Assembly: GCA_964642275.1 (NCBI GenBank)
Contig: CAZXOA010000004.1
Location: forward strand, 1 to 62,042
Direction: 5' to 3'
DNA: 62,042 nt
Source of the DNA: an uncultured Candidatus Saccharibacteria bacterium
GTDB taxonomy: Bacteria > Patescibacteriota > Saccharimonadia > Saccharimonadales > JACDBH01
The notes under the pieces are model-generated. The model was not told the origin of the DNA. It searched no databases and worked only from the letters and a program-made list of their open reading frames with translations. Within the stretch, counting starts at the first letter, position 1; every line of letters starts with the position of its first letter. The position numbers and the translations under genes were made by a program. This document shows positions 4,226-62,042 of this stretch, in pieces.

Positions 4226-4314
4226 GAGAAAAATCTCTAATTTGTTCCTGTGGAACTCGAGCTATCGCTCTTCAAACAGTCCTCGGAACGTATACCTAAT
4301 TAGAGATTTCTCTC
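4226..4314. repeat. 17-nt inverted repeat (16/17 paired) enclosing 55 nt that contains two small hairpins
   Basis: GAGAAAAATCTCTAATT (4226-4242) pairs with AATTAGAGATTTCTCTC (4298-4314). Inner hairpin is GTTCC-TGT-GGAAC (4244-4256). Confidence 0.6.
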
Positions 4315-7392: not shown

Positions 7393-7486
7393 CTCTCGCC
7401 TCTTCTCTAGTTCCGTATCCTTACAGAACAGTATAGAGTAATCCCGTCTGCATATGCGGTCAAGTGCAGAATCTACAACGATTACC

Positions 7487-7551
7487 GTTTACTGTTTACT
7501 ATTCACGGAAATGGCAAATGTACAATGAAAGATTAATGGTAAACGGTAAAC
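7487..7551. repeat. Inverted pair of heptamer doublets: (GTTTACT)x2 and (GGTAAAC)x2
   Basis: Left array at 7487-7500 and right array at 7538-7551. The right array is the reverse complement, GTTTACC x2. 12/13 complementary. Confidence 0.7.
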
Positions 7552-7552
7552 T

Positions 7553-8167
7553 TTACTTCTTCTTGCTCTGATTGGTTTTGCGCTTTTTATAGTCTGGATA
7601 GCGCAGCTCTTGGCGCTTCTGATCTAGGCGGACAATGTATTTTTCGTACGGTTTCAGCAGACTGCTGTACTGCCAGTTTGGCGCCAGCACGTGGAGTAGC
7701 TTGTTCTGCTGGTCCAGATGCTCTATAAGCGTATAAAAATCACCATCGCCAGAGACAATCAGCGCCTTGTCATAATTCTTGATTTCCTTCATGACATGCA
7801 AGACAAGATCGGCGTCAACATTCCCCTTCATAGGAACCTTTTCCTTCTCTGGCTTGTCAGCATCGGTCTTCTGAGTACTATCATCGGATTTTGGTTCTTC
7901 CGTATGGAACATCTCAAGGGTTGGCTTCAGAACAACCAAAAAGCCCTGCGAATGCAACTGGTCATACAGCTTCTCAAAATCCGGCATATAGCCGATAAAC
8001 ATGAAGGCTTTTTCGACGTTGTATTCGGCCTTCAGCCATTCGCGGAACTTTTTCCAATCCATCTTCCAGCCCATTTTTTGGGTGCCAAGATTGAGGTTCT
8101 GGCTATCGATAAACGCGTAGTTCGCCAGCTTTTTAGCCGGTTGTTTCTTTTTTCTAAAAGGTCTCAT
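7553..8167 (-). CDS. NYN-domain (LabA/DUF88-like) protein
   Basis: N-terminal AFIDSQNL and a central VSGDGDF motif typical of NYN/LabA. 204 aa. Confidence 0.8.
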   Translation of the reverse strand: MRPFRKKKQPAKKLANYAFIDSQNLNLGTQKMGWKMDWKKFREWLKAEYNVEKAFMFIGYMPDFEKLYDQLHSQGFLVVLKPTLEMFHTEEPKSDDSTQKTDADKPEKEKVPMKGNVDADLVLHVMKEIKNYDKALIVSGDGDFYTLIEHLDQQNKLLHVLAPNWQYSSLLKPYEKYIVRLDQKRQELRYPDYKKRKTNQSKKK

Positions 8168-11074: not shown

Positions 11075-11112
11075 CATTATATTATAACAAATATGGTTAT
11101 TTATGTCAATAT

Positions 11113-16577: not shown

Positions 16578-17774
16578 GTGAAGTCATTGCTTATACTTGG
16601 CCGCCAGCCGGCACTCGGCCTGGCCGAACTCGAGAGCCTGTACGGCGCCGATACTGTGCAGGCTGTTGGCAAAGGCGGAGCCCTCCTTGATATCGAACCT
16701 TCGTTAGTACAGTTCGGTCGCCTGGGCGGCAGTATCAAGCTTGCTAAGATAATCCAGGTACACGGCACAACCGATTGGCACAATATTGAGCCGCACCTCG
16801 CCGCCATCACAAAAGACATCGTCGTCGGTCTCGCTGACGGTAAAATACGCCTTGGCATCAGTACTTACGGTATCCGTGTCCACCCCCAGGATGTCAACCG
16901 CACCGGCCTCAGCCTCAAGAAGGCCATCAAGAATGAGGGCCGTTCGGCCCGTATTATTCCCAACAAATCACCAGAGCTCAACAGTGCGCAGGTACTGCAC
17001 AACCAGCTGACTGGCCCTACCGGCATCGAGCTCGTCATCGCCCGCGACGGAGACAAAGTTATCATTGCCCGCACCGTTGCTGAACAAGACATCGAGGCCT
17101 ATGCCGCGCGTGACCAAAACCGCCCCGCCCGAGATGCCAAAGTCGGCATGCTCCCCCCAAAACTGGCACAAATATTGATAAACCTGGCTACCGCCGGTGA
17201 AAATCCGGAGCTAGAGGGCATGGTGCTGGATCCGTTCTGTGGTACTGGCGTGCTGCTCCAAGAAGCCAGGATAATGGGCTATGACACTTTTGGCAGCGAC
17301 ATTGATTCCAGAATGATTGGATATTCTGCCGAAAACCTACTATGGCTTGAGGATAGATTAAACCCGGATAGAAACTACACTCCAACAAGTGTAAAACAGC
17401 TCGAGATTGGCGACGCTACCACCCACAGATGGCAGCTTCAGCCCACCTATATCGCCTGCGAAACTTATCTGGGTAAACCACTCACTTCTCTACCGCCTCG
17501 CCAAGTTCTCGATAAAATCATGGCCGAATGCGACGATATCCACGAAAAATTCCTGCGCAATATCGGCTCACAAATCGAGCCCGGCACACGCCTCTGCCTC
17601 GCTGTCCCGGCATGGCACACAAAAAACGGCTTTTTACACCTTAAAACGCTTGCAAAACTAGATGAACTAGGCTATAATCGACAGAAGTTTGTTCACGCGC
17701 ACAACGAGGAGCTGATTTATCACCGCCCCGGCCAAATAGTCGCCCGTGAACTCGTAGTTTTAGAAAAGAACTAG
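16578..17774 (+). CDS. SAM-dependent RNA/DNA methyltransferase (Trm11/UPF0020-like)
   Basis: LDPFCGTGVLLQEA motif I and a following SDID motif. 398 aa. Confidence 0.8.
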   Translation: MKSLLILGRQPALGLAELESLYGADTVQAVGKGGALLDIEPSLVQFGRLGGSIKLAKIIQVHGTTDWHNIEPHLAAITKDIVVGLADGKIRLGISTYGIRVHPQDVNRTGLSLKKAIKNEGRSARIIPNKSPELNSAQVLHNQLTGPTGIELVIARDGDKVIIARTVAEQDIEAYAARDQNRPARDAKVGMLPPKLAQILINLATAGENPELEGMVLDPFCGTGVLLQEARIMGYDTFGSDIDSRMIGYSAENLLWLEDRLNPDRNYTPTSVKQLEIGDATTHRWQLQPTYIACETYLGKPLTSLPPRQVLDKIMAECDDIHEKFLRNIGSQIEPGTRLCLAVPAWHTKNGFLHLKTLAKLDELGYNRQKFVHAHNEELIYHRPGQIVARELVVLEKN

Positions 17775-17798
17775 TGAAAAATAACCACTGTAAAGCGG

Positions 17799-17911
17799 TT
17801 ATTCTGAGCCAAAGGTAATTTGTTATCAGACGAGGCACCATTCTGGAAGCGTATATACCATACGATGGAAGAATGTCCTTGGCTGAGAGCAAATTACCAT
17901 TCTCAGAATAA
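17799..17911 (+). ncRNA. Long imperfect hairpin element, copy A (candidate structured RNA or leader upstream of rpmA). Strand not established.
   Basis: Basal stem TTATTCTGAG/CTCAGAATAA. Middle stem GGTAATTTGTTATCAG/CTGAGAGCAAATTACC (15/16 paired). Apical stems CATTCT/AGAATG and CGTAT/ATACG. About 74% identical to copy B, with compensatory changes. Confidence 0.45.
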
Positions 17912-17934
17912 GCGCGCGCATAAAGGAACAATAG

Positions 17935-18207
17935 ATGAGTCATGTCAAAGCAGGCGGTACCGCCAAAAACATCCACAACAACGCCGGACAACGTCTTGGC
18001 GTAAAACGCTTTGGCGGCGAAAAAGTTAATAACGGCGAAGTCATCGTCCGCCAGGTCGGCCTCACTAAGCGCGCCGGCGAAGGCACCTATGTCAGCCGCA
18101 ACTACACCATCCACGCCGCAAAAGACGGCATCGTCACCTACAAAAAGCGCAAGGTAAAAACCTTTACTGGCAAAACCACCTTCCGCACCGAAGTCACTGT
18201 GCAGTAG
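17935..18207 (+). CDS. rpmA: 50S ribosomal protein L27
   Basis: N-terminal SHVKAGGTAKN and the overall L27 pattern. An SD-like AAGGA lies 8 nt upstream. 90 aa. Confidence 0.95.
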   Translation: MSHVKAGGTAKNIHNNAGQRLGVKRFGGEKVNNGEVIVRQVGLTKRAGEGTYVSRNYTIHAAKDGIVTYKKRKVKTFTGKTTFRTEVTVQ

Positions 18208-18307
18208 GCAGCATCACCGCCCCGGCTAGAGCCGTTAACATCCTTGGCTGTCCTCTTGAACCCCTTGACATCCTGACGTGAAGTATCTTGTTCTTAAGCA
18301 ATTTTTT

Positions 18308-19423
18308 CTACCTCTGCACTACACTATTTATGTCGTCCACAAGCGTCGAGCCATACCCATATTCGGCCAGCAGCTGCTTCAGCTCAGCAATATGTGCTTG
18401 GTCGGTCAGTATAAGAGGCGTATCCTCCATGAGGACTTCCGAGTTATAGACCCGGAACTCACTCCCAATATCACCAATCGTCAGGCTCGCGATAGTCTTT
18501 GTGCCTATTTCCTCGTCAGGGACTCGTGTACTTTCATGCACATTGTATCCATCACCCCTTAGGCCAAAAGCAATTGGAAAGTTTGCCAGTATAAGCCTAG
18601 CTTCAAGGCTTTCAGGATCCGAAACGACCTGAGCAATGCTTGCCTCAGTGTCTGCTAGCACTTGTCTTACAGCCCTGATGTAGCGCGTCTCTCTGCCCTC
18701 TGTCCGGACAAGGTTCTCCTCAATATGTTGCCTCGCGTCGTCTGCACGCGTCCTTAGGTCATCAAGGCTACGCGGCCCAGAAGGGTCCACCGCGTACTCC
18801 CTGATGTCTTCAGGGGATCTCCAGTCACTGAAACTGATGCTCCCTTGCCCGTCTGAACCAGCACCTATTCTTTCGCCGCTCCCTACTATCTGACCTCTTT
18901 TTCTGGCTTCATGAGCAGAGAGGATAGAGCCATTTTTTAATACGCCAGCAAGCGCTGCTGAAGTTGTGCCGTGGAACCCAATAATGTTATGCTCTACTAT
19001 CGCCTCGGCAACCGAGGGGTAATCAGCAAGCATTTCAGCTAGACGCTGCTTCTTTGGCTCGTAACCGCTGACTGTCCGCTTACCCAGGATCATGGGTATT
19101 GGCCTACCATTAAGCGTAGCCTTCTCTATAATCTCTCGCTGTCTGGCATCTAAGGTCTGATCTGTCTCTGGAGCAATCCCTGCCACTTCAACCGCTGTTG
19201 CCGCCGCTAGTCCACCCGCAATACTTAAGGACTGGTCTCTGTAGGCCTCTGGACTCGGCAGATCATCCAATGCACCCGCCCGTAGCGCTTGATTAGCATT
19301 ATAATTATTGGTTGCAGTCTGAGGATCTGCCCCATAGTAGGTGGATAAATCGGGTGCGGTTAGTTCGGCCATTTTATTTTTGCTTAACGAGTACATAATA
19401 GCATAAGCTTTATTAAAAGTCAA
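18308..19423 (-). CDS. Hypothetical protein with PARP-like ADP-ribosyltransferase motifs
   Basis: FHGTTSAALAGVLKNGSIL resembles the PARP WHGSrttNfAGILsqGLrI motif. GSISFSD resembles GIYFAD. SEFRVYN resembles NEYIVYD. The start is uncertain: TTG 19423, or ATG 19396 or 19372. Confidence 0.55.
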   Translation of the reverse strand: MTFNKAYAIMYSLSKNKMAELTAPDLSTYYGADPQTATNNYNANQALRAGALDDLPSPEAYRDQSLSIAGGLAAATAVEVAGIAPETDQTLDARQREIIEKATLNGRPIPMILGKRTVSGYEPKKQRLAEMLADYPSVAEAIVEHNIIGFHGTTSAALAGVLKNGSILSAHEARKRGQIVGSGERIGAGSDGQGSISFSDWRSPEDIREYAVDPSGPRSLDDLRTRADDARQHIEENLVRTEGRETRYIRAVRQVLADTEASIAQVVSDPESLEARLILANFPIAFGLRGDGYNVHESTRVPDEEIGTKTIASLTIGDIGSEFRVYNSEVLMEDTPLILTDQAHIAELKQLLAEYGYGSTLVDDINSVVQR

Positions 19424-19439
19424 TTATATCGTTGACTTG

Positions 19440-19937
19440 CTACTGTTGGGGTGTTGGATGCTGGACAAGTATAGCCGAGTACATACCAGCCGCCACACTA
19501 GCCACTTCTTCTGTGGCATCAGAACTGTCGAGCAGCTGCTTGAGCCTGGTTTTTGCCATCCCAAGAGCACTTGCATCATTGTGTGCGATAAAGTCTGCAT
19601 AGGCACCGACGGCAATTGATATTTCTCCAACCATCTGAGAATCACCGACTTGGCGCAGATCAGGAGCAATCTGCTGTCTAAAGTAAACATCTATCGACTG
19701 TTGGTCGTCCCAAAACGGCAGGATGACTGCCCGCTTAAGACGGCTCTCTGCAGCATCGATCTCGGAATTCTGCAACGACTGCTGTACACCATTCAGATAA
19801 TCCAAGCGATTCACCTCACCACCTTGCATACCGGCCAGCCTCACACCCTCCATGAGCTCTCTTGCATACCGTGCCGCACGGCTTCCTACATGACTTAGTG
19901 CTGGGTCTTGGTCTGAGAATGCAATCTGCTCTGGCAT
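19440..19937 (-). CDS. Hypothetical helical protein (165 aa)
   Basis: ORF tightly packed between the receiver gene (21-nt gap) and the PARP-like gene (16-nt gap). No family recognised. Confidence 0.55.
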   Translation of the reverse strand: MPEQIAFSDQDPALSHVGSRAARYARELMEGVRLAGMQGGEVNRLDYLNGVQQSLQNSEIDAAESRLKRAVILPFWDDQQSIDVYFRQQIAPDLRQVGDSQMVGEISIAVGAYADFIAHNDASALGMAKTRLKQLLDSSDATEEVASVAAGMYSAILVQHPTPQQ

Positions 19938-19958
19938 ATTTTTGTGTCTAGCAACCGT

Positions 19959-20357
19959 TTACGCGCCGAGGTGCATTTTGATGCGGTCGACCACATCGGC
20001 TATCACAACCTGCGACTTGACCAGATAGTCATCCGCGCCCATGTCTTCTGCTTTTTTACGGTCCGCCTCTTGGCTCAGGGCTGTGAGCATGACAATCTTT
20101 ACATTGGTCAACTCCGGGGTGTTGCGGAGAATATCAAGTACGTCAAAGCCATTTACCTTCGGCATCATCACATCCAGCAGTATCAAATCCGGCCGGAACT
20201 CCACGGCAGTTGCGAGCGCATCTTCACCGTTCGGAACACGGCGTATTTCAAAACCCTCTACCTCAAGACGGGCGATATAGACTTGTGCCAAGTTCTCGTC
20301 ATCTTCAACAAGCAGGACTTTTCGGCGGCGATTTGCCACAGCAGGTGTTTCTTCCAT
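19959..20357 (-). CDS. Canonical single-domain response regulator (CheY-like receiver)
   Basis: LLVEDD acidic pocket, phospho-acceptor DLILLDVMMP, VMLTA and a conserved Lys. 132 aa. Confidence 0.9.
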   Translation of the reverse strand: MEETPAVANRRRKVLLVEDDENLAQVYIARLEVEGFEIRRVPNGEDALATAVEFRPDLILLDVMMPKVNGFDVLDILRNTPELTNVKIVMLTALSQEADRKKAEDMGADDYLVKSQVVIADVVDRIKMHLGA

Positions 20358-20462
20358 ACCCCTTATGCTACCTCAGAGAAGAGAAATTTTCAATTTACAT
20401 TTCTCATTCCACCCTCATTCTTCATTCTGCACTGGATGACCCTACGCCACTGTCAAGCAACC

Positions 20463-20574
20463 TTTTTCAGCCAAGGGGTAACTTGTTCTAAGATGAGGCT
20501 TCCACTCTGGAAACGTATAGTGAAATACGATGAAAGAATGTCCTCACCTTAGAACAAATCACCACTCCGAAAAT
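20463..20574 (+). ncRNA. Long imperfect hairpin element, copy B (paralog of copy A). Strand not established.
   Basis: Same architecture as copy A. Basal stem TTTTCAG/CCGAAAA. Middle stem GGTAACTTGTTCTAAG/CTTAGAACAAATCACC (14/16 paired). Identical apical CGTAT/ATACG and AGAATGTCCT core. Confidence 0.45.
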
Positions 20575-20586
20575 ACTTGCGCGCTG

Positions 20587-22182
20587 CTAAAGGCTTTTTA
20601 TAAAGCCAGAAAAGAGCGGATGCGGACGATTAGGCCGGCTTTTGAATTCCGGGTGGAACTGGCTGGCAATAAAGAATGGATGGTCAACAGCCTCGATAAT
20701 CTCGACTAGATGATTATCCGGCGACGTACCGCTGGCACGGATGCCCCATGATTCATACTGGTCACGATAGTCATTATTACATTCATAGCGGTGCCGGTGG
20801 CGCTCGGTAATTGCCTCCTGCCCGTACAAATTGCGCGCGTTTGAGCCCTTTGCCAACTTGCAATCATAGTTGCCAAGCCGCATTGTGCCGCCGGTGTTTT
20901 CTTTGCCTTCCTGCCCGTCCATAGTCGTAATAACAAGATCTGCCGCCTCTGCATCGAGCTCTTTTGAGGTTGCTCCGGCCAGCCCCGCATTGCGGGCTGC
21001 GGCAATCACTGCCATTTGAAGCCCCAGGCAAAGGCCAAGATACGGCAGCTTTTGCTTAAGCGCATACTGGGCTGCGGCAATCTTGCCCTCAAGCCCGCGT
21101 ATACCGAAACCGCCTGGCACCACAATGCCGTCGATACCCTTCAGTGCTTCTTCTACAGCTTGCTGAGATTTGAGATGTTCAGCATCTATCCAGACAAGCT
21201 CCGTAGAACCTTCTTCGTGCCAGGCCGCTGCCTTGAGCGCCTCAAAAACAGACATGTAAGTATCTTGGTTGTTGAGGTACTTTGCAACAATACCGATTTT
21301 GTAGGTACGCTTGTGACCATTCTTTGCCCGCTCGACCACCTGGCGCCATTCACGGAGCGACGGCTTGCCCGCCTTGAGTGCAAGTTTTTTGACAATAACG
21401 TCATCGATTCCCTTCTCCTCGAGCGTCAGTGGAACCTCGTAGATGGTGCGGGCATTGGGCAAGAGCACAATCGCATCCTTGTCAACGCCGCTAAATAAAC
21501 TCAGTTTCTGAATGACTGATTTTTCTGCCGTATCTTCAGACCGTGCAACCAGTACGTCGGGTACGATACCCAGGCCCCTGAGCTCACGGACAGCATTCTG
21601 CGCCGGTTTGGTCTTGATCTCGTGGCTAGCGCCAAGATATGGCAGATAGACAACATGCACGAACAGGCAGTTTTCGCGGCCAACGCGCATGGCAAGTTCG
21701 CGGATTGCCTCAATAAAACTCAGCCCCTCATAGTCGCCGACCGTGCCGCCGATCTCGACGATATGCACGTCATAGCCATCGGCTGTTGCAATGATCTCGT
21801 CCTGAATGGCAGCAGTCACGTGCGGTATAAACTGGACTGTCTTGCCCTGGTATTTGCCTGCGCGTTCATCAGCAATGACCCGCTGCAGTACCCGCCCGCT
21901 CATGAATGAACTTGACTGCGTCAGCTCCATATCAAGAAAGCGCTCGTAATGGCCGAGATCAAGATCGGTCTCAGCACCATCTTTGGTGACAAAACATTCA
22001 CCGTGCTCAGCCGGATTGAGCGTACCAGCATCAACATTGAGATACGGGTCGCACTTCTGGATATTGACCGAGAGGCCGCGGGATTTGAGGATGTTGCCAA
22101 TCGAGGCGGCCGTGATACCCTTTCCGAGTCCGGAAAGCACACCACCAGTTACAAACACATATTTTGTCGGTCGTTTTGCCAC
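20587..22182 (-). CDS. pyrG: CTP synthase
   Basis: N-terminal KYVFVTGGVLSGLGKGI and a C-terminal glutamine amidotransferase domain (GLCLGLQ). GTG start with SD AAGAGGTG. 531 aa. Confidence 0.97.
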   Translation of the reverse strand: MAKRPTKYVFVTGGVLSGLGKGITAASIGNILKSRGLSVNIQKCDPYLNVDAGTLNPAEHGECFVTKDGAETDLDLGHYERFLDMELTQSSSFMSGRVLQRVIADERAGKYQGKTVQFIPHVTAAIQDEIIATADGYDVHIVEIGGTVGDYEGLSFIEAIRELAMRVGRENCLFVHVVYLPYLGASHEIKTKPAQNAVRELRGLGIVPDVLVARSEDTAEKSVIQKLSLFSGVDKDAIVLLPNARTIYEVPLTLEEKGIDDVIVKKLALKAGKPSLREWRQVVERAKNGHKRTYKIGIVAKYLNNQDTYMSVFEALKAAAWHEEGSTELVWIDAEHLKSQQAVEEALKGIDGIVVPGGFGIRGLEGKIAAAQYALKQKLPYLGLCLGLQMAVIAAARNAGLAGATSKELDAEAADLVITTMDGQEGKENTGGTMRLGNYDCKLAKGSNARNLYGQEAITERHRHRYECNNDYRDQYESWGIRASGTSPDNHLVEIIEAVDHPFFIASQFHPEFKSRPNRPHPLFSGFIKSL

Positions 22183-24875: not shown

Positions 24876-24998
24876 GTATTGTTCTTGTGATTCTACTTTT
24901 TGTGTTTGTTTAGACTACTTATTATTAGCATAATTCTCTACTTCAATCAAGCTTATGCTTAATCTCAACAGATGGTACGTGTTGTGTATATTACTATG

Positions 24999-59932: not shown

Positions 59933-60032
59933 GTGTCACTTATGGTTCTTAAGATCATAGGCCCCGGCCTTCAAAACCCACCGTGTACTTCTAGGAAGAT
60001 GCTGCCCAACAGGAAATACATTAAACATACTC

Positions 60033-60058
60033 AAAAAGACGATGGCCATCGTCTTTTT
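60033..60058. terminator. Bidirectional terminator between convergent genes
   Basis: AAAAAGACGAT-GGCC-ATCGTCTTTTT, a perfect palindrome with A/T runs on both sides. Confidence 0.8.
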
Positions 60059-60104
60059 GAATATATTGTGTACCATCAGGAGAGCCTGATTGAGTCTACT
60101 ACTC

Positions 60105-62039
60105 TTACTGAATGATGAAGTAGTCGAATATGTACGTGTGGCCGAGATCTGGCGGGTTGACAAAGTGGATGGTAAAACCAGTAGGCGTTGTCTCTACATA
60201 GTAGACGGCACCCGCTGTAGCCTGGTTCTTAGCAGTCAGTGCAATCTTTGGCTGCGCGGTATAGGCACTGGTAAACGTGACTTTTACCTGTTCACCCGCT
60301 ACGGACGGGTTAACGCCTGAGGCTGCATAGGTAATCGAGCCGGCAATATCGTTGCCATTGATAGTAATGGTACCTGTTGACGCCGCTTGGGCTCCAAGGA
60401 CCGCAGTAGCCGGGTTACCGGCAGAGATGATTTTGCCACTTACCGTAATGTTACCTGCAAAGTTACCCTGCTCCACCGCCAGCAGACGGTTCTCTAGATT
60501 AGTTACCTTAACATCAAGCTGTTGGACACTTGTTACCAGAAGTGCGGTGATGACGTTGGGGTTGAATGAAGCCACTTCTCCATTAGCGTCATAGGTGACG
60601 GCTTGCGGGATAATACCCGCGACTGCTTCGGCAATGAAGCCATAGTCGAGCTGTCCGGTAGAAGTCCAAGTGTAGCTGACGGCCTGTAGGAGACGCAGCT
60701 CATCAAGGCCATAGGCACCAGCGGTCACATCAGTCTTAAACCGTGACGATGAGGTACAGCCAGCCAGTTGACCTGCGCTATTACGGCAGACGGCGGCAGC
60801 GGTGTCGGCAGTCGCTGCTGCATAAGTAACGATACCTGTAGTGATCCCTCCCGTAACATTGAGACCTTGCTTAAAGATAGCCGCACCCTGCACAGTCAGC
60901 CCACCGCCAATAGACACGCCACCCTGCAAATTGGCATCACCGGTCATATTGAGGGCGCTGTCATGGCCGCCGCCAGAGGTCATGACGCGGTTGGTGCCAT
61001 TTCTTCCTACTGCCACAAACAGGCCGTTGCCGTAGGTTATACCATGCCACCAGTTAGCTTCAGTAGCGGTGCGAGCAGTCCAAGTGATGCCGTCCGGGCT
61101 GGTCATGACGCGGTTGGTGCCTTCTGCTACTGCTACAAACATACCATTGCCGTAGGTGACAGAAAGCCAGAAATTTGCCTCTGCGGCAGTTCTAGCCGTC
61201 CAGGTGATGCCGTCTGGGGAGGTCATGACGCGGTTGGTGCCGTCAGATGAAACCGCCACGAAGAGGCCGTTGCCGTAGGTGACGGAGTACCAGCTGTTAG
61301 CTTCGGCAGCGGTGCGTGGGGTCCAGGTGATGCCGTCTGGGGAGGTCATGACGCGGTTGGTGCCACTAGTGGAAGTTGCTACAAACAGGCCATTACCGTA
61401 GGTGATACCAAGCCAACTATTAGCTTCGGCGGCGGTGCGTGGAGTCCAGGTGATACCGTCTGGGGAGGTCATGACGCGGTTGGTGCCGTTACCACTCACT
61501 GCCACAAACAAGCCATTGCCGTAGGTGATAGAGTACCACTGGTTGGCTTCGGCGGCGGCCCGTGGGGACCAGTCTATACCATTTGGGCTGGTCATGACGC
61601 GGTTGGTGCCGTCAAGAGATACGGCTACGAATAGCCCATTGCCGTAGGTGATGGAGTACCAGAAATTTGCCTCTGCGGCAGTTCTAGCCGTCCAGGTGAT
61701 GCCGTCTGGGGAGGTCATGACGCGGTTGGTGCCGTCAGATGAAACCGCCACGAAGAGGCCGTTGCCGTAGGTAATAGAACGCCACTGATTTGCTTGAGCA
61801 GCGGTGCGGGGGGTCCAGGTGTCAGCCTGGCGGAGGTTGCTAGTGACACTCAGTGTCCCCTGCACTTCTGTATGGCCAGATACTCGTAGACCAAGACCAA
61901 GATCATGCTGCATAGTCATGATATAAGTGCCATTGATACCAACAGCAACGAAGAGGCCGTTGCCGTAACCGACCGAGCGCCAACTACTATCAGCTGCGCT
62001 GGTGCGAGTTGTCCAGGTAATACCGTCTGGTGAGGTCAT
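60105..62039 (-). CDS. Large repeat protein, 5'-partial. Contains Asp-box (SxDxGxTW) beta-propeller blades, a beta-helix-like region, an internal S74-like intramolecular-chaperone domain and a 120-aa C-terminal module.
   Basis: At least 9 repeats of about 41 aa (NRVMTSPDGITWT.RTAAEAN.W..ITYGNGLFVAV). SSRFKTDV...YGFIAEAV...LENRL matches the endosialidase-chaperone (Peptidase_S74) pattern. The ORF runs off the window end. Confidence 0.85.
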   Translation of the reverse strand: MTSPDGITWTTRTSAADSSWRSVGYGNGLFVAVGINGTYIMTMQHDLGLGLRVSGHTEVQGTLSVTSNLRQADTWTPRTAAQANQWRSITYGNGLFVAVSSDGTNRVMTSPDGITWTARTAAEANFWYSITYGNGLFVAVSLDGTNRVMTSPNGIDWSPRAAAEANQWYSITYGNGLFVAVSGNGTNRVMTSPDGITWTPRTAAEANSWLGITYGNGLFVATSTSGTNRVMTSPDGITWTPRTAAEANSWYSVTYGNGLFVAVSSDGTNRVMTSPDGITWTARTAAEANFWLSVTYGNGMFVAVAEGTNRVMTSPDGITWTARTATEANWWHGITYGNGLFVAVGRNGTNRVMTSGGGHDSALNMTGDANLQGGVSIGGGLTVQGAAIFKQGLNVTGGITTGIVTYAAATADTAAAVCRNSAGQLAGCTSSSRFKTDVTAGAYGLDELRLLQAVSYTWTSTGQLDYGFIAEAVAGIIPQAVTYDANGEVASFNPNVITALLVTSVQQLDVKVTNLENRLLAVEQGNFAGNITVSGKIISAGNPATAVLGAQAASTGTITINGNDIAGSITYAASGVNPSVAGEQVKVTFTSAYTAQPKIALTAKNQATAGAVYYVETTPTGFTIHFVNPPDLGHTYIFDYFIIQ

Positions 62040-62042
62040 GAC
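60960..62042. repeat. Tandem 123-bp (41-codon) coding repeats
   Basis: The string GTCATGACGCGG recurs at 60979, 61102, 61222, 61345, 61468, 61591 and 61714 (spacing 123, 120, 123, 123, 123, 123). A truncated copy starts at 62035, at the window edge. Confidence 0.9.

Follow-up and report, generated by a model that had tools for sequence, protein, structure and literature searches.

Why does a short stretch of genome from an uncultured Candidatus Saccharibacteria bacterium carry the same intergenic sequence twice, and does this sequence act as DNA or as RNA, and on which strand? The window analysed here is the whole of a 62,042-nt stretch (GenBank assembly GCA_964642275.1, contig CAZXOA010000004.1, positions 1 to 62,042), in which copy A (17785-17926) and copy B (20447-20593) form direct repeats on the + strand, located 2.6 kb apart and alignable over about 140 nt. 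Copy A lies between a methyltransferase gene and rpmA, the gene for ribosomal protein L27, while copy B lies between a receiver gene and pyrG (Table 1). Our analysis classifies both as members of a previously undescribed, low-copy family of rod-shaped RNA hairpins of ~135 nt (125-140 nt). As a whole, the data are best explained by a relocating low-copy hairpin-RNA family of a Saccharimonadales subclade that is selected on the transcribed strand and of which copy B has been re-tuned to the opposite strand, and we put the probability of this explanation at roughly one half.

A repeat of about 145 nt with an identity of about 74% had been proposed in a first-pass annotation of this DNA, and three alignments confirmed it. 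Global alignment of the CCACTGT...GCGCGC core revealed 102/139 identical positions (73%), structure-guided alignment with a covariance model 72%, and an ungapped 60-mer (repeat family D4) 77%, and the blocks CCACTGTNAAGC, TCTGGAARCGTATA, ATACGATGRAAGAATGTCCT, and GCGCGC were all found in A and in B. The 20-mer ATACGATGRAAGAATGTCCT occurs exactly twice in the 62 kb (shuffle expectation 0), and k-mer, sequence, and covariance-model searches of the window found no third copy of the element. The two copies scored 134-165 bits in the covariance-model search, with E-values of 1e-35 to 1e-43; copy B reached 134-142 bits on the + strand and 44-46 bits on the − strand, which places its homology in the + orientation. 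Also the gene context of both copies, with B between two minus-strand genes, was as first described. Two details had to be corrected, however. The shared motif TAAAGG, counted at first as a block of the element, is flanking sequence in both copies, namely the Shine-Dalgarno sequence of rpmA in A and the reverse complement of the native last pyrG codons (...S-L-stop) in B, which relatives without the element possess too. Moreover, the 3' block of B does not overlap the pyrG stop codon (20587-20589) but abuts it, as the last position is 20580 for the hairpin and 20584 for the GCGCGC block, leaving a gap of 2 nt; on the − strand, the hairpin of copy B thus starts directly after the pyrG stop.

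Both copies share one long irregular hairpin of 44 base pairs in six helical segments. Folding of copy A gave −56.5 kcal/mol (z −7.1) on the + strand and −45 kcal/mol on the − strand, the whole-copy fold of B a z of −5.6 on the − strand and −2.3 on the + strand, and fold energies in the family range from −47 to −61 kcal/mol. Covariation was assessed in an alignment of ten copies (A6; their origin is described below) with a 44-pair consensus, using shuffles and slid 3' partners as controls. Standard pairs occupied 94.5% of the pair cells, compared to 84.9% in shuffles and 38-49% in the slid controls; 18 of the 44 pairs had changed on both sides, and the observed covariation score was reached by 0/500 shuffles. 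An earlier set of five sequences had shown changes on both sides at 11 of the 44 pairs, and the four orthologues upstream of rpmA alone displayed seven pairs compensated on both sides. Thus, conservation of the secondary structure by compensatory substitutions, under selection, is strongly supported, and both the selection on structure suspected in the first-pass annotation and the statistical support for the paired substitutions, on which that suspicion depended, were borne out by the added copies. Of the two stems it had singled out, the middle one is compensated as described (C-G in A versus A-U in B); the basal one revealed the expected exchange (G-C in A versus C-G in B) but is not clean on the + strand, where B contains A·C mismatches.

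The basal helices are the most variable part of the element, by compensation, with changes on both sides at 7/13 pairs of P0/P1, while the apical 5-bp helix CGUAU/AUACG is invariant across the copies. Sequence conservation peaks at this apex and in purine-rich internal loops, comprising a 5x5 loop (variants GGAAG/AUGGA, GGAAA/GUGAA, and GGAGA/GUUAA, with GGGG/ACAA in the copies of one site, named C below), a 4x1 loop, and a CCAAR/AYU loop. Two alleles of the element were observed within one population with identical L27, namely in L041, L046, and L048 on the one hand and L042-L045 and L047 on the other. On its 3' side, the 5x5 loop reads AUGGA versus AUAGG in the two, which are further set apart by a 1-nt deletion plus a C-to-U change that mends a C·A mismatch in the basal stem.

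Eight further copies were obtained, all from Saccharimonadales-type contigs, resulting in a total of ten copies at four intergenic sites. One (L001) was identified in a Candidatus Saccharimonadales metagenome-assembled genome by a scan of genome collections and one (L024) by a metagenome scan, while the remaining copies stem from contigs encoding close L27 homologues (L033-35, L041-49, L077-80), which were searched with the covariance model. The scan pattern CTGGAANCGN{8,16}CGATGNAAGAATG resulted in 14 genome, 14 metagenome, and 4 viral-contig matches, of which only L001 and L024 were true; the false matches were devoid of every other block of the element. Since this pattern fits only four of the ten known copies, the scarcity of hits in the collection scans is no evidence that the element itself is rare.

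Site A, between the methyltransferase gene and rpmA, is filled in the window, in the P0015 lineage (L041-49), in L077, and in L078-80, with a spacer of ~162 nt. It is empty in L033-36, L037-40, L050-52, L053-56, L057-66, L081, and L082, displaying spacers of 9-15 nt, and in L067-76, whose 45-nt spacer gave no covariance-model match. In the empty alleles of L033, L037, L050, L053, L081, and L082, the methyltransferase stop codon overlaps the Shine-Dalgarno sequence (TAAGGAA). Site B, between the receiver gene and pyrG, is filled in the window only, by a 215-nt insertion (20372-20586) directly after the pyrG stop, and is empty in all relatives (spacers of 18-46 nt). The insertion includes 75 nt located 5' of copy B that bear no similarity to the flanks of other copies. 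Site C extends from the promoter of a variable gene to the stop of the receiver gene and is filled in L033-35 and empty in L042, L050, and L053; site D, between pyk and pgk, is filled in L001. These precise empty sites in sister genomes (spacers of 9-46 nt) show the element to be a discrete unit, acquired or lost in one piece. The gene order methyltransferase(+)-rpmA(+)-variable gene(s)(−)-receiver gene(−)-pyrG(−) is kept in the sampled lineages except for the most distant one, P0064 (L067-L076), in which pyrG is not adjacent. Among 13 sampled lineages with the same synteny, four carry the element upstream of rpmA and nine have none there. A and B are direct repeats as first reported, but the bracketing of rpmA and the accessory genes that was pointed out with it has no evident meaning; relatives harbor the element at one site only or at a third site.

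With regard to its conservation, the element equals rpmA and by far exceeds the adjacent methyltransferase gene. Copies at site A are 74-89% identical to one another, at nucleotide identities of 0.5-0.7 for the methyltransferase gene and 0.79-0.86 for rpmA; copy A and its counterpart in L042 are 87-89% identical, compared to 62-67% at third codon positions of the flanking genes (binomial p = 5e-8). Copies are diverged overall (58-89% identity). Copy B is equidistant, with 72% identity to A and 75% each to L077 and L001. Since copies at other sites in other genomes are at least as close to it as A is, B is no recent duplicate of A, and of the three origins considered at first, a duplicated leader remnant is unlikely. 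The other two, a structured mobile repeat and an independent small RNA (sRNA) family, are both possible, and the data fit a hybrid of them, i.e., a relocating, low-copy structured-RNA element.

The patchy occurrence at site A was analysed by means of a methyltransferase tree, as a test of a single gain followed by vertical descent: the filled lineages form no clade, the empty L081 is sister to the filled L077, and the empty L050 is sister to the window. In addition, the methyltransferase identity between the window and L044 of the P0015 lineage amounts to 0.51-0.71 and then rises to 0.85 in the last 150 nt (17625-17774) beside element A (0.89). This tract looks like recombination that carried element A along, and the jump in identity next to the element indicates that recombination of flanking DNA between lineages contributes to the patchiness.

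A non-autonomous transposable element, either a miniature transposable element with inverted repeats (MITE) or a hairpin mobilised by an HUH enzyme in the manner of IS200/IS605, REP, or PATE, would also relocate. Its fold would be kept since the mobilising enzyme reads one folded strand, and any effects as RNA would be by-products. The four sites with their precise empty alleles are in line with it, as is the fact that copies from different sites resemble each other as much as those from one site (e.g., 81% between L077 at site A and L001 at site D) and that A, B, and C share one orientation within 3 kb. The helices P0/P1 at the termini, however, are the least conserved ones and are compensated, the opposite of what is expected of terminal repeats bound by a transposase, and no inverted match to the conserved 5' block CCACTGTNAAGC is present at the 3' end. 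At site A, the L042 copy is bordered by an imperfect direct repeat of 8-10 nt, AAAG(G)AATAA, with a weaker version at site A of the window, but neither a consistent target-site duplication nor a target motif was convincing at sites B, C, and D; the 10-mer CAGAGAAGAG / CAGAAAAGAG near B, considered as such a duplication, lies within the native pyrG coding sequence and is probably due to chance. Flanking direct repeats of MITEs decay over time (PMC10969869). A transposition signature was not definable here, as the termini are unconserved in sequence and a plausible direct repeat exists at site A only. Dozens of copies with target-site duplications, which would point to a MITE, were not seen: copy numbers are low, at two in 62 kb and none outside the rpmA-pyrG neighbourhood in ~300 kb of related loci, a comparison limited to these regions, and no consistent duplications occur. 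The few copies are too diverged for a recent burst, and those at site A persist with compensation across lineages saturated at synonymous sites. No transposase family was detected among the nine window proteins flanking both copies (no wider search for insertion sequences was made), and searches of phages and plasmids (blastn) and of viral contigs (also with a looser two-gap pattern) resulted in no match. Transposition via single-stranded DNA would likewise predict the strand-specific pairing described next; an enzyme reading one fixed strand, on the other hand, cannot explain the reversed copy B. Altogether, we consider a transposable element unlikely.

A hairpin folds on both strands of its DNA, and a G·U pair on one strand becomes an A·C mismatch on the other; both were counted as a test of the strand. 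Nine of the ten copies are more stable, by 3-16 kcal/mol, on the motif strand, i.e., in the homologous orientation, where each contains 1-5 G·U pairs and 0-1 A·C mismatches, regardless of whether the neighbouring genes run sense (site A) or, both of them, antisense (C and D). Copy B shows the inverse pattern, with no G·U pair and five A·C mismatches on the + strand, all five of which are G·U pairs on the − strand, and its folding energy is −32.6 kcal/mol on the + strand and −53.8 kcal/mol on the − strand. Compared with the family majority, 31 of its 44 pairs are unchanged, seven are changed on both sides, five on one side, and one is broken on both strands; the five one-sided changes are all T-to-C on the + strand and all G·U on the − strand. 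Thus, 38/44 pairs are Watson-Crick on both strands, and only 1/44 fails on the − strand. Counted by distinct columns, there are 12 G·U versus 1 A·C outside B and 0 versus 5 in B (Fisher p = 0.0007). A and B display these opposite preferences though they lie on the same DNA strand and in one replichore.

Pairing that tolerates G·U and almost no A·C on one strand points to a single-stranded form of the element, most simply RNA. In the simplest reading, selection would act on the hairpin as RNA of the transcribed strand, at B that of pyrG and the receiver gene. Neutral decay would not be expected to leave B with a − strand hairpin as stable as the functional strand of the other copies and with just one failing pair out of 44.

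Several observations weigh against this interpretation. Relaxed selection together with a T-to-C bias on the + strand could explain the reversed copy B as well, and B retains the loop sequences of the + orientation, for which the − strand offers no obvious use. A single-stranded DNA intermediate would be consistent with the strand asymmetry too, given that DNA hairpins tolerate G·T wobbles. Scans of the copies found neither a conserved promoter nor a conserved terminator belonging to the element, and the promoter calls discussed below are consensus matches near chance frequency, predicted from sequence alone, of which the candidate for the L034 copy at site C is weak (8/12 positions only). As the copies at C and D are antisense to their neighbours, a role as cis-element of a host mRNA depends there on presumed antisense transcription. 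Any host function must be dispensable, since close relatives lack the element at every site. Finally, copy number and distribution are poorly bounded, with four independent loci known and a true spread that may be much wider.

The same strand preference agrees with another explanation, in which the element is an independent, trans-acting, probably protein-binding sRNA gene family with 1-2 copies per genome and a drifting location, and B a silent duplicate, either in decay or co-opted. Folding on the motif strand irrespective of flanking-gene orientation at C and D, the low copy number, and the very high conservation that peaks at the apex and in the purine-rich loops would all be expected of such a family. 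So would the fact that each element-bearing lineage possesses at least one copy tuned to the motif strand, the extra copy B alone having no upstream promoter-like site. Yet no conserved promoter or terminator accompanies the element, copy A lies within the predicted 5' untranslated region (UTR) of rpmA, the 5x5 loop varies between copies, and the stability of the − strand hairpin of B is contrary to decay. As to a trans-acting seed, the window contains no more matches to the complement of the conserved 5' block than expected (10 versus 12.4), and this candidate was rejected. Nine of the 13 lineages have no copy in the neighbourhood searched, though they may harbor one elsewhere in their genomes. 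We regard an sRNA family of this kind as unlikely.

At site A, a promoter-like sequence (TTGCAA/TTGACC-N17-TATAAT/TATACT) is kept in lineages with and without the element, and its core GGCTATAMTCG is found in all relatives. In each of the four site-A lineages, the element follows 106-110 nt downstream of it. As this predicted promoter resides inside the methyltransferase gene, rpmA appears to own a promoter embedded in the upstream gene, and copy A would lie in the rpmA 5' UTR. An rplU gene before rpmA is absent in the window and in all related loci. In the consensus fold of the four site-A orthologues (A8), the Shine-Dalgarno sequence and the AUG are unpaired, and the element ends 4-6 nt upstream of the former. 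We therefore favor a role in stability over a switch that sequesters the ribosome-binding site (RBS), which is less likely. The element would most likely serve at this site as an independent module between the conserved promoter and the unpaired Shine-Dalgarno sequence, acting as a stable 5' hairpin, a protein-binding module, or a processing site that modulates the stability or processing of rpmA mRNA, and the conserved 5x5, 4x1, and CCAAR/AYU loops suggest a protein partner.

Position and orthology also invite the assumption of an autoregulatory rpmA leader that responds to L27 or another ribosomal protein, with B, C, and D as stray duplicates. In four lineages, the element indeed lies between the conserved promoter and the Shine-Dalgarno sequence, its orthologues there covary, and purine-rich internal loops are typical of protein-binding sites. 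Such a leader should be more constant, however, than an element missing upstream of rpmA in nine of 13 lineages, including L081, the sister of the filled L077, and it should act on a Shine-Dalgarno sequence and AUG that are not sequestered here. Three of the four sites have no link to a ribosomal gene and are antisense to their neighbours, and no ribosomal leader in Rfam, including the L21 leader, matched even at E up to 10. In a survey of ribosomal leaders, L27 is absent from the text and rpmA appears only in a reference title (PMC7247131). By both distribution (4/13 lineages) and architecture (RBS unoccluded), the element is not a member of the ribosomal-protein leaders, and we judge such a leader improbable.

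Promoter-like sites (9/12 positions each) also precede the L033 copy at site C and the site-D copy. Together with site A, they lie 19-110 nt upstream of the respective copy and are not homologous between sites. Copy B is the only copy without a motif-strand promoter-like site within 170 nt upstream, and the first-pass annotation was right in that B, with two minus-strand neighbours, is no 5' leader in its own orientation. According to the re-tuning scenario, B would have been placed right behind the pyrG stop, facing the opposite way and without a motif-strand promoter, and five T-to-C transitions would then have re-tuned its stems to form a hairpin on the − strand, in the pyrG 3' UTR or pyrG-receiver spacer. 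On this strand, it may act only as a sequence-independent 3'-UTR or intercistronic hairpin, e.g., for 3'-end protection or as a processing site. The − strand also displays, downstream of the hairpin, a promoter-like site for the receiver gene (TTGAAA-N17-TAGCAT, 20393-20365), whose −35 hexamer is part of the 75 nt inserted with B. The −10-like TAGCAT is located only 7 nt upstream of the receiver-gene ATG in the window and in L033, so the receiver-gene mRNA may be nearly leaderless.

A last alternative assigns the element to the DNA level, as an integron attC-like site, a Xer-type recombination site, or a cruciform that flanks a hypervariable slot between rpmA and the receiver gene. As a strand-biased imperfect palindrome in the size range of attC, the element would suit this, and the copies at A, B, and C do flank a gene slot that differs in every lineage, with the hairpin abutting a gene stop codon at B and D and lying within ~20 nt of one at C. 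Reading of the hairpin ends, however, revealed no R''/R' core sites (RYYYAAC / GTTRRRY), and no integrase or recombinase family was detected in the scanned window proteins or the listed genes of related loci. The sequence conservation of attC sites is far below the 58-89% found here, loops included; the opposite strand preference of A and B on one strand does not match a replication-linked single-stranded DNA mechanism, and the essential gene rpmA would sit inside a "cassette". A DNA-level site is thus very improbable.

Further candidate identities were tried and rejected. No intrinsic terminator was called at A or B on either strand, and no U-run follows the hairpin on the + strand of A or the − strand of B. 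An ATG-led open reading frame (ORF) is present in the 3' arm of A, B, and L001, and its ATG is lost in L041 and in the copies at site C, which speaks against coding. By inspection, CsrA-type GGA sites are lost in B and in the site-C copies, a K-turn, SRP domain IV, the 6S central bubble, and attC boxes do not fit, and no reverse transcriptase is located nearby that would point to a diversity-generating retroelement (DGR) or a retron. The coordinates of the features are compiled in Table 1.

Table 1. Coordinates of the two element copies and of neighbouring features in the window
Feature	Position	Strand	Remarks
Copy A, whole element	17785..17920	+	5' block CCACTGTAAAGC, hairpin 17795-17915, 3' block GCGCGCGC
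Copy A, P0/P1	17795-17808 with 17902-17915	+	fold and pair counts
Copy A, P2-P4	17814-17835 with 17877-17898	+	fold and pair counts
Copy A, P5	17839-17844 with 17870-17875	+	
Copy A, P6 (apical)	17850-17854 with 17860-17864	+	
Copy A, 5x5 purine-rich loop	17845-17849 with 17865-17869	+	
Copy B, whole element	20447..20584	+	homologous orientation; 5' block CCACTGTCAAGC, hairpin, 3' GCGCGC block
Copy B, hairpin	20457..20580	−	better-folding strand, co-transcribed with pyrG and receiver gene; helices below in + coordinates
Copy B, P0/P1	20457-20470 with 20567-20580		+ coordinates
Copy B, P2-P4	20477-20498 with 20542-20563		+ coordinates
Copy B, P5	20503-20508 with 20535-20540		+ coordinates
Copy B, P6 (apical)	20514-20518 with 20525-20529		+ coordinates
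Extra segment 5' of copy B	20372..20446	.	75 nt, missing from empty sites too
UPF0020-type methyltransferase gene	16578-17774	+	upstream neighbour of copy A
Promoter-like site TTGCAA-N17-TATAAT	17650..17678	+	inside 3' end of methyltransferase gene; 10/12 consensus positions
rpmA Shine-Dalgarno sequence (AAAGGAA) and start codon	17921..17937	+	directly 3' of copy A; unpaired in consensus fold
rpmA (L27)	17935-18207	+	Pfam Ribosomal_L27 at 8e-20; downstream neighbour of copy A
Single-domain response-regulator (receiver) gene	19959..20357	−	Pfam Response_reg at 6e-24; downstream of copy B on −
pyrG (CTP synthase)	20587..22182	−	Pfam CTP_synth_N at 2e-112; C-terminus GFIKSL* native by comparison with relatives

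A slot that looks hypervariable separates rpmA from the receiver gene. In the window, its gene(s) occupy 18308-19937 on the − strand, and the same slot was identified in L033, L034, L037, L042, L050, L053, L057, L077, L078, and L082. Its genes differ in every lineage, ranging from 98 to 556 aa, with contigs of identical L27 being no exception (456 versus 407 aa). They revealed only patchy mutual similarity, no match in Pfam or NCBIfam, and no credible PADLOC match, and are driven by a predicted, conserved strong promoter. Near-consensus TTGACA-N17-TATAAT promoters were detected in the window at 1111-1141, 11081-11111, 24940-24970, and 19395-19423 (read on the − strand), and the same type occurs in L033 (7711-7739) and L042 (1191-1215). 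Their spacers share an AAGCTT-centred box, e.g., TATAAAGCTTGTGC, which may represent either an operator or a promoter feature typical of the clade; part of this box adjoins the 5' end of the L001 copy. Apart from that, an ORF at 60105-62039 on the − strand (644 aa), harboring a Peptidase_S74 domain (endosialidase chaperone, tail-fibre-like), contains at 60976-62042 a tandem array of seven to eight 123-nt (41-aa) units that are 65-82% identical. Other inverted repeats, unrelated to the element, are located at 7477-7554 (29-nt arms, 72% complementary), 4226-4314 (17-nt arms, 94%, with 55 nt between them), and 60024-60067 (a 22-nt perfect-type palindrome).

Few RNAs of this kind are known in Saccharimonadales or other candidate-phyla bacteria, whose genomes are tiny and whose spacers are very short (see the empty sites above), and no prior description of the element was found in a targeted literature search. 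In genomes like these, a 135-nt element so strongly constrained in structure and sequence is probably not junk, and its retention implies a function. More speculatively, and in our view rather unlikely in this full form, it may be a self-contained structured RNA gene that relocates between intergenic sites of ultra-small candidate phyla radiation (CPR) genomes, functions on its own strand with a protein partner reading the conserved apex, and can be switched by a few transitions to the other strand for re-use in an antisense host transcript. If true, this would be a mobile non-coding RNA with orientation-dependent exaptation. In any case, the covariance model, with ten members at four loci, makes the family a candidate for the regulation of the L27 gene or for a new RNA-protein partnership. 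The A/B pair also represents a natural experiment, in that two copies on the same strand, 2.6 kb apart, have stems tuned to opposite strands, and if the direction of transcription explains this, the asymmetry of G·U and A·C could reveal the expressed strand without a transcriptome.

Comparison with known systems was based on Rfam 15, where the whole window gave 0 matches at the gathering score and positions 17000-21500 gave 0 at E up to 10 with permissive filters, and on the literature. In behaviour, the nearest match are the small repeats of the MITE/ERIC/REP/BIME, Correia, RUP, Rickettsia RPE, and QMITE type (PMC10969869). Like these, the element is small, non-coding, intergenic, polymorphic for presence and absence, and would yield a very stable stem-loop transcript; it is found in 5' UTRs or just after stops, in either orientation, and can supply parts of a promoter, as with the −35 hexamer beside B (PMC10969869). 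Unlike MITEs, it has no sequence-conserved terminal inverted repeats, the termini being most variable and the apex most conserved, no consistent target-site duplication, no cognate insertion sequence or transposase in view, and a very low copy number, and it displays strong covariation, a conservation above that of flanking coding DNA, and strand-specific pairing. With attC sites, it shares an imperfect hairpin of similar length, a strand-specific fold, and a position beside ORF ends and variable genes, but it differs in having no R/L boxes, no integrase nearby, high primary conservation, and two copies of opposite strand preference in one replichore.

In Firmicutes, the L21 leader (Rfam RF00559) is located upstream of rplU-rpmA. 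Copy A and its orthologues resemble ribosomal-protein leaders in being a conserved structured element in the predicted rpmA 5' UTR, and depart from the L21 leader in having no match to its sequence or structure, a free RBS, a patchy occurrence among sister lineages, and paralogues at unrelated antisense sites. Short gene-specific stabiliser hairpins at the very 5' end of an mRNA are known from E. coli ompA (5' stem-loop), B. subtilis aprE, and cryIIIA (STAB-SD). As in those, copy A is a very stable hairpin with a strong unpaired Shine-Dalgarno sequence a few nt further on; as opposed to them, it is a rod of ~125 nt, ~110 nt past the predicted transcription start, that recurs elsewhere and whose function we infer. 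Finally, 4.5S/SRP RNA and 6S RNA likewise form a single long irregular hairpin with purine-rich symmetric and asymmetric loops, present in 1-2 copies per genome region and independent in location of their neighbours. The element has neither a match to them in Rfam at E up to 10 nor a 6S central bubble or SRP domain-IV consensus, its loop sequences vary, and its sites are empty in close relatives. Taken together, this comparison classifies it as a new family within a known general kind, the structured intergenic hairpin RNA elements, with the strand-switched copy B as its unusual feature.

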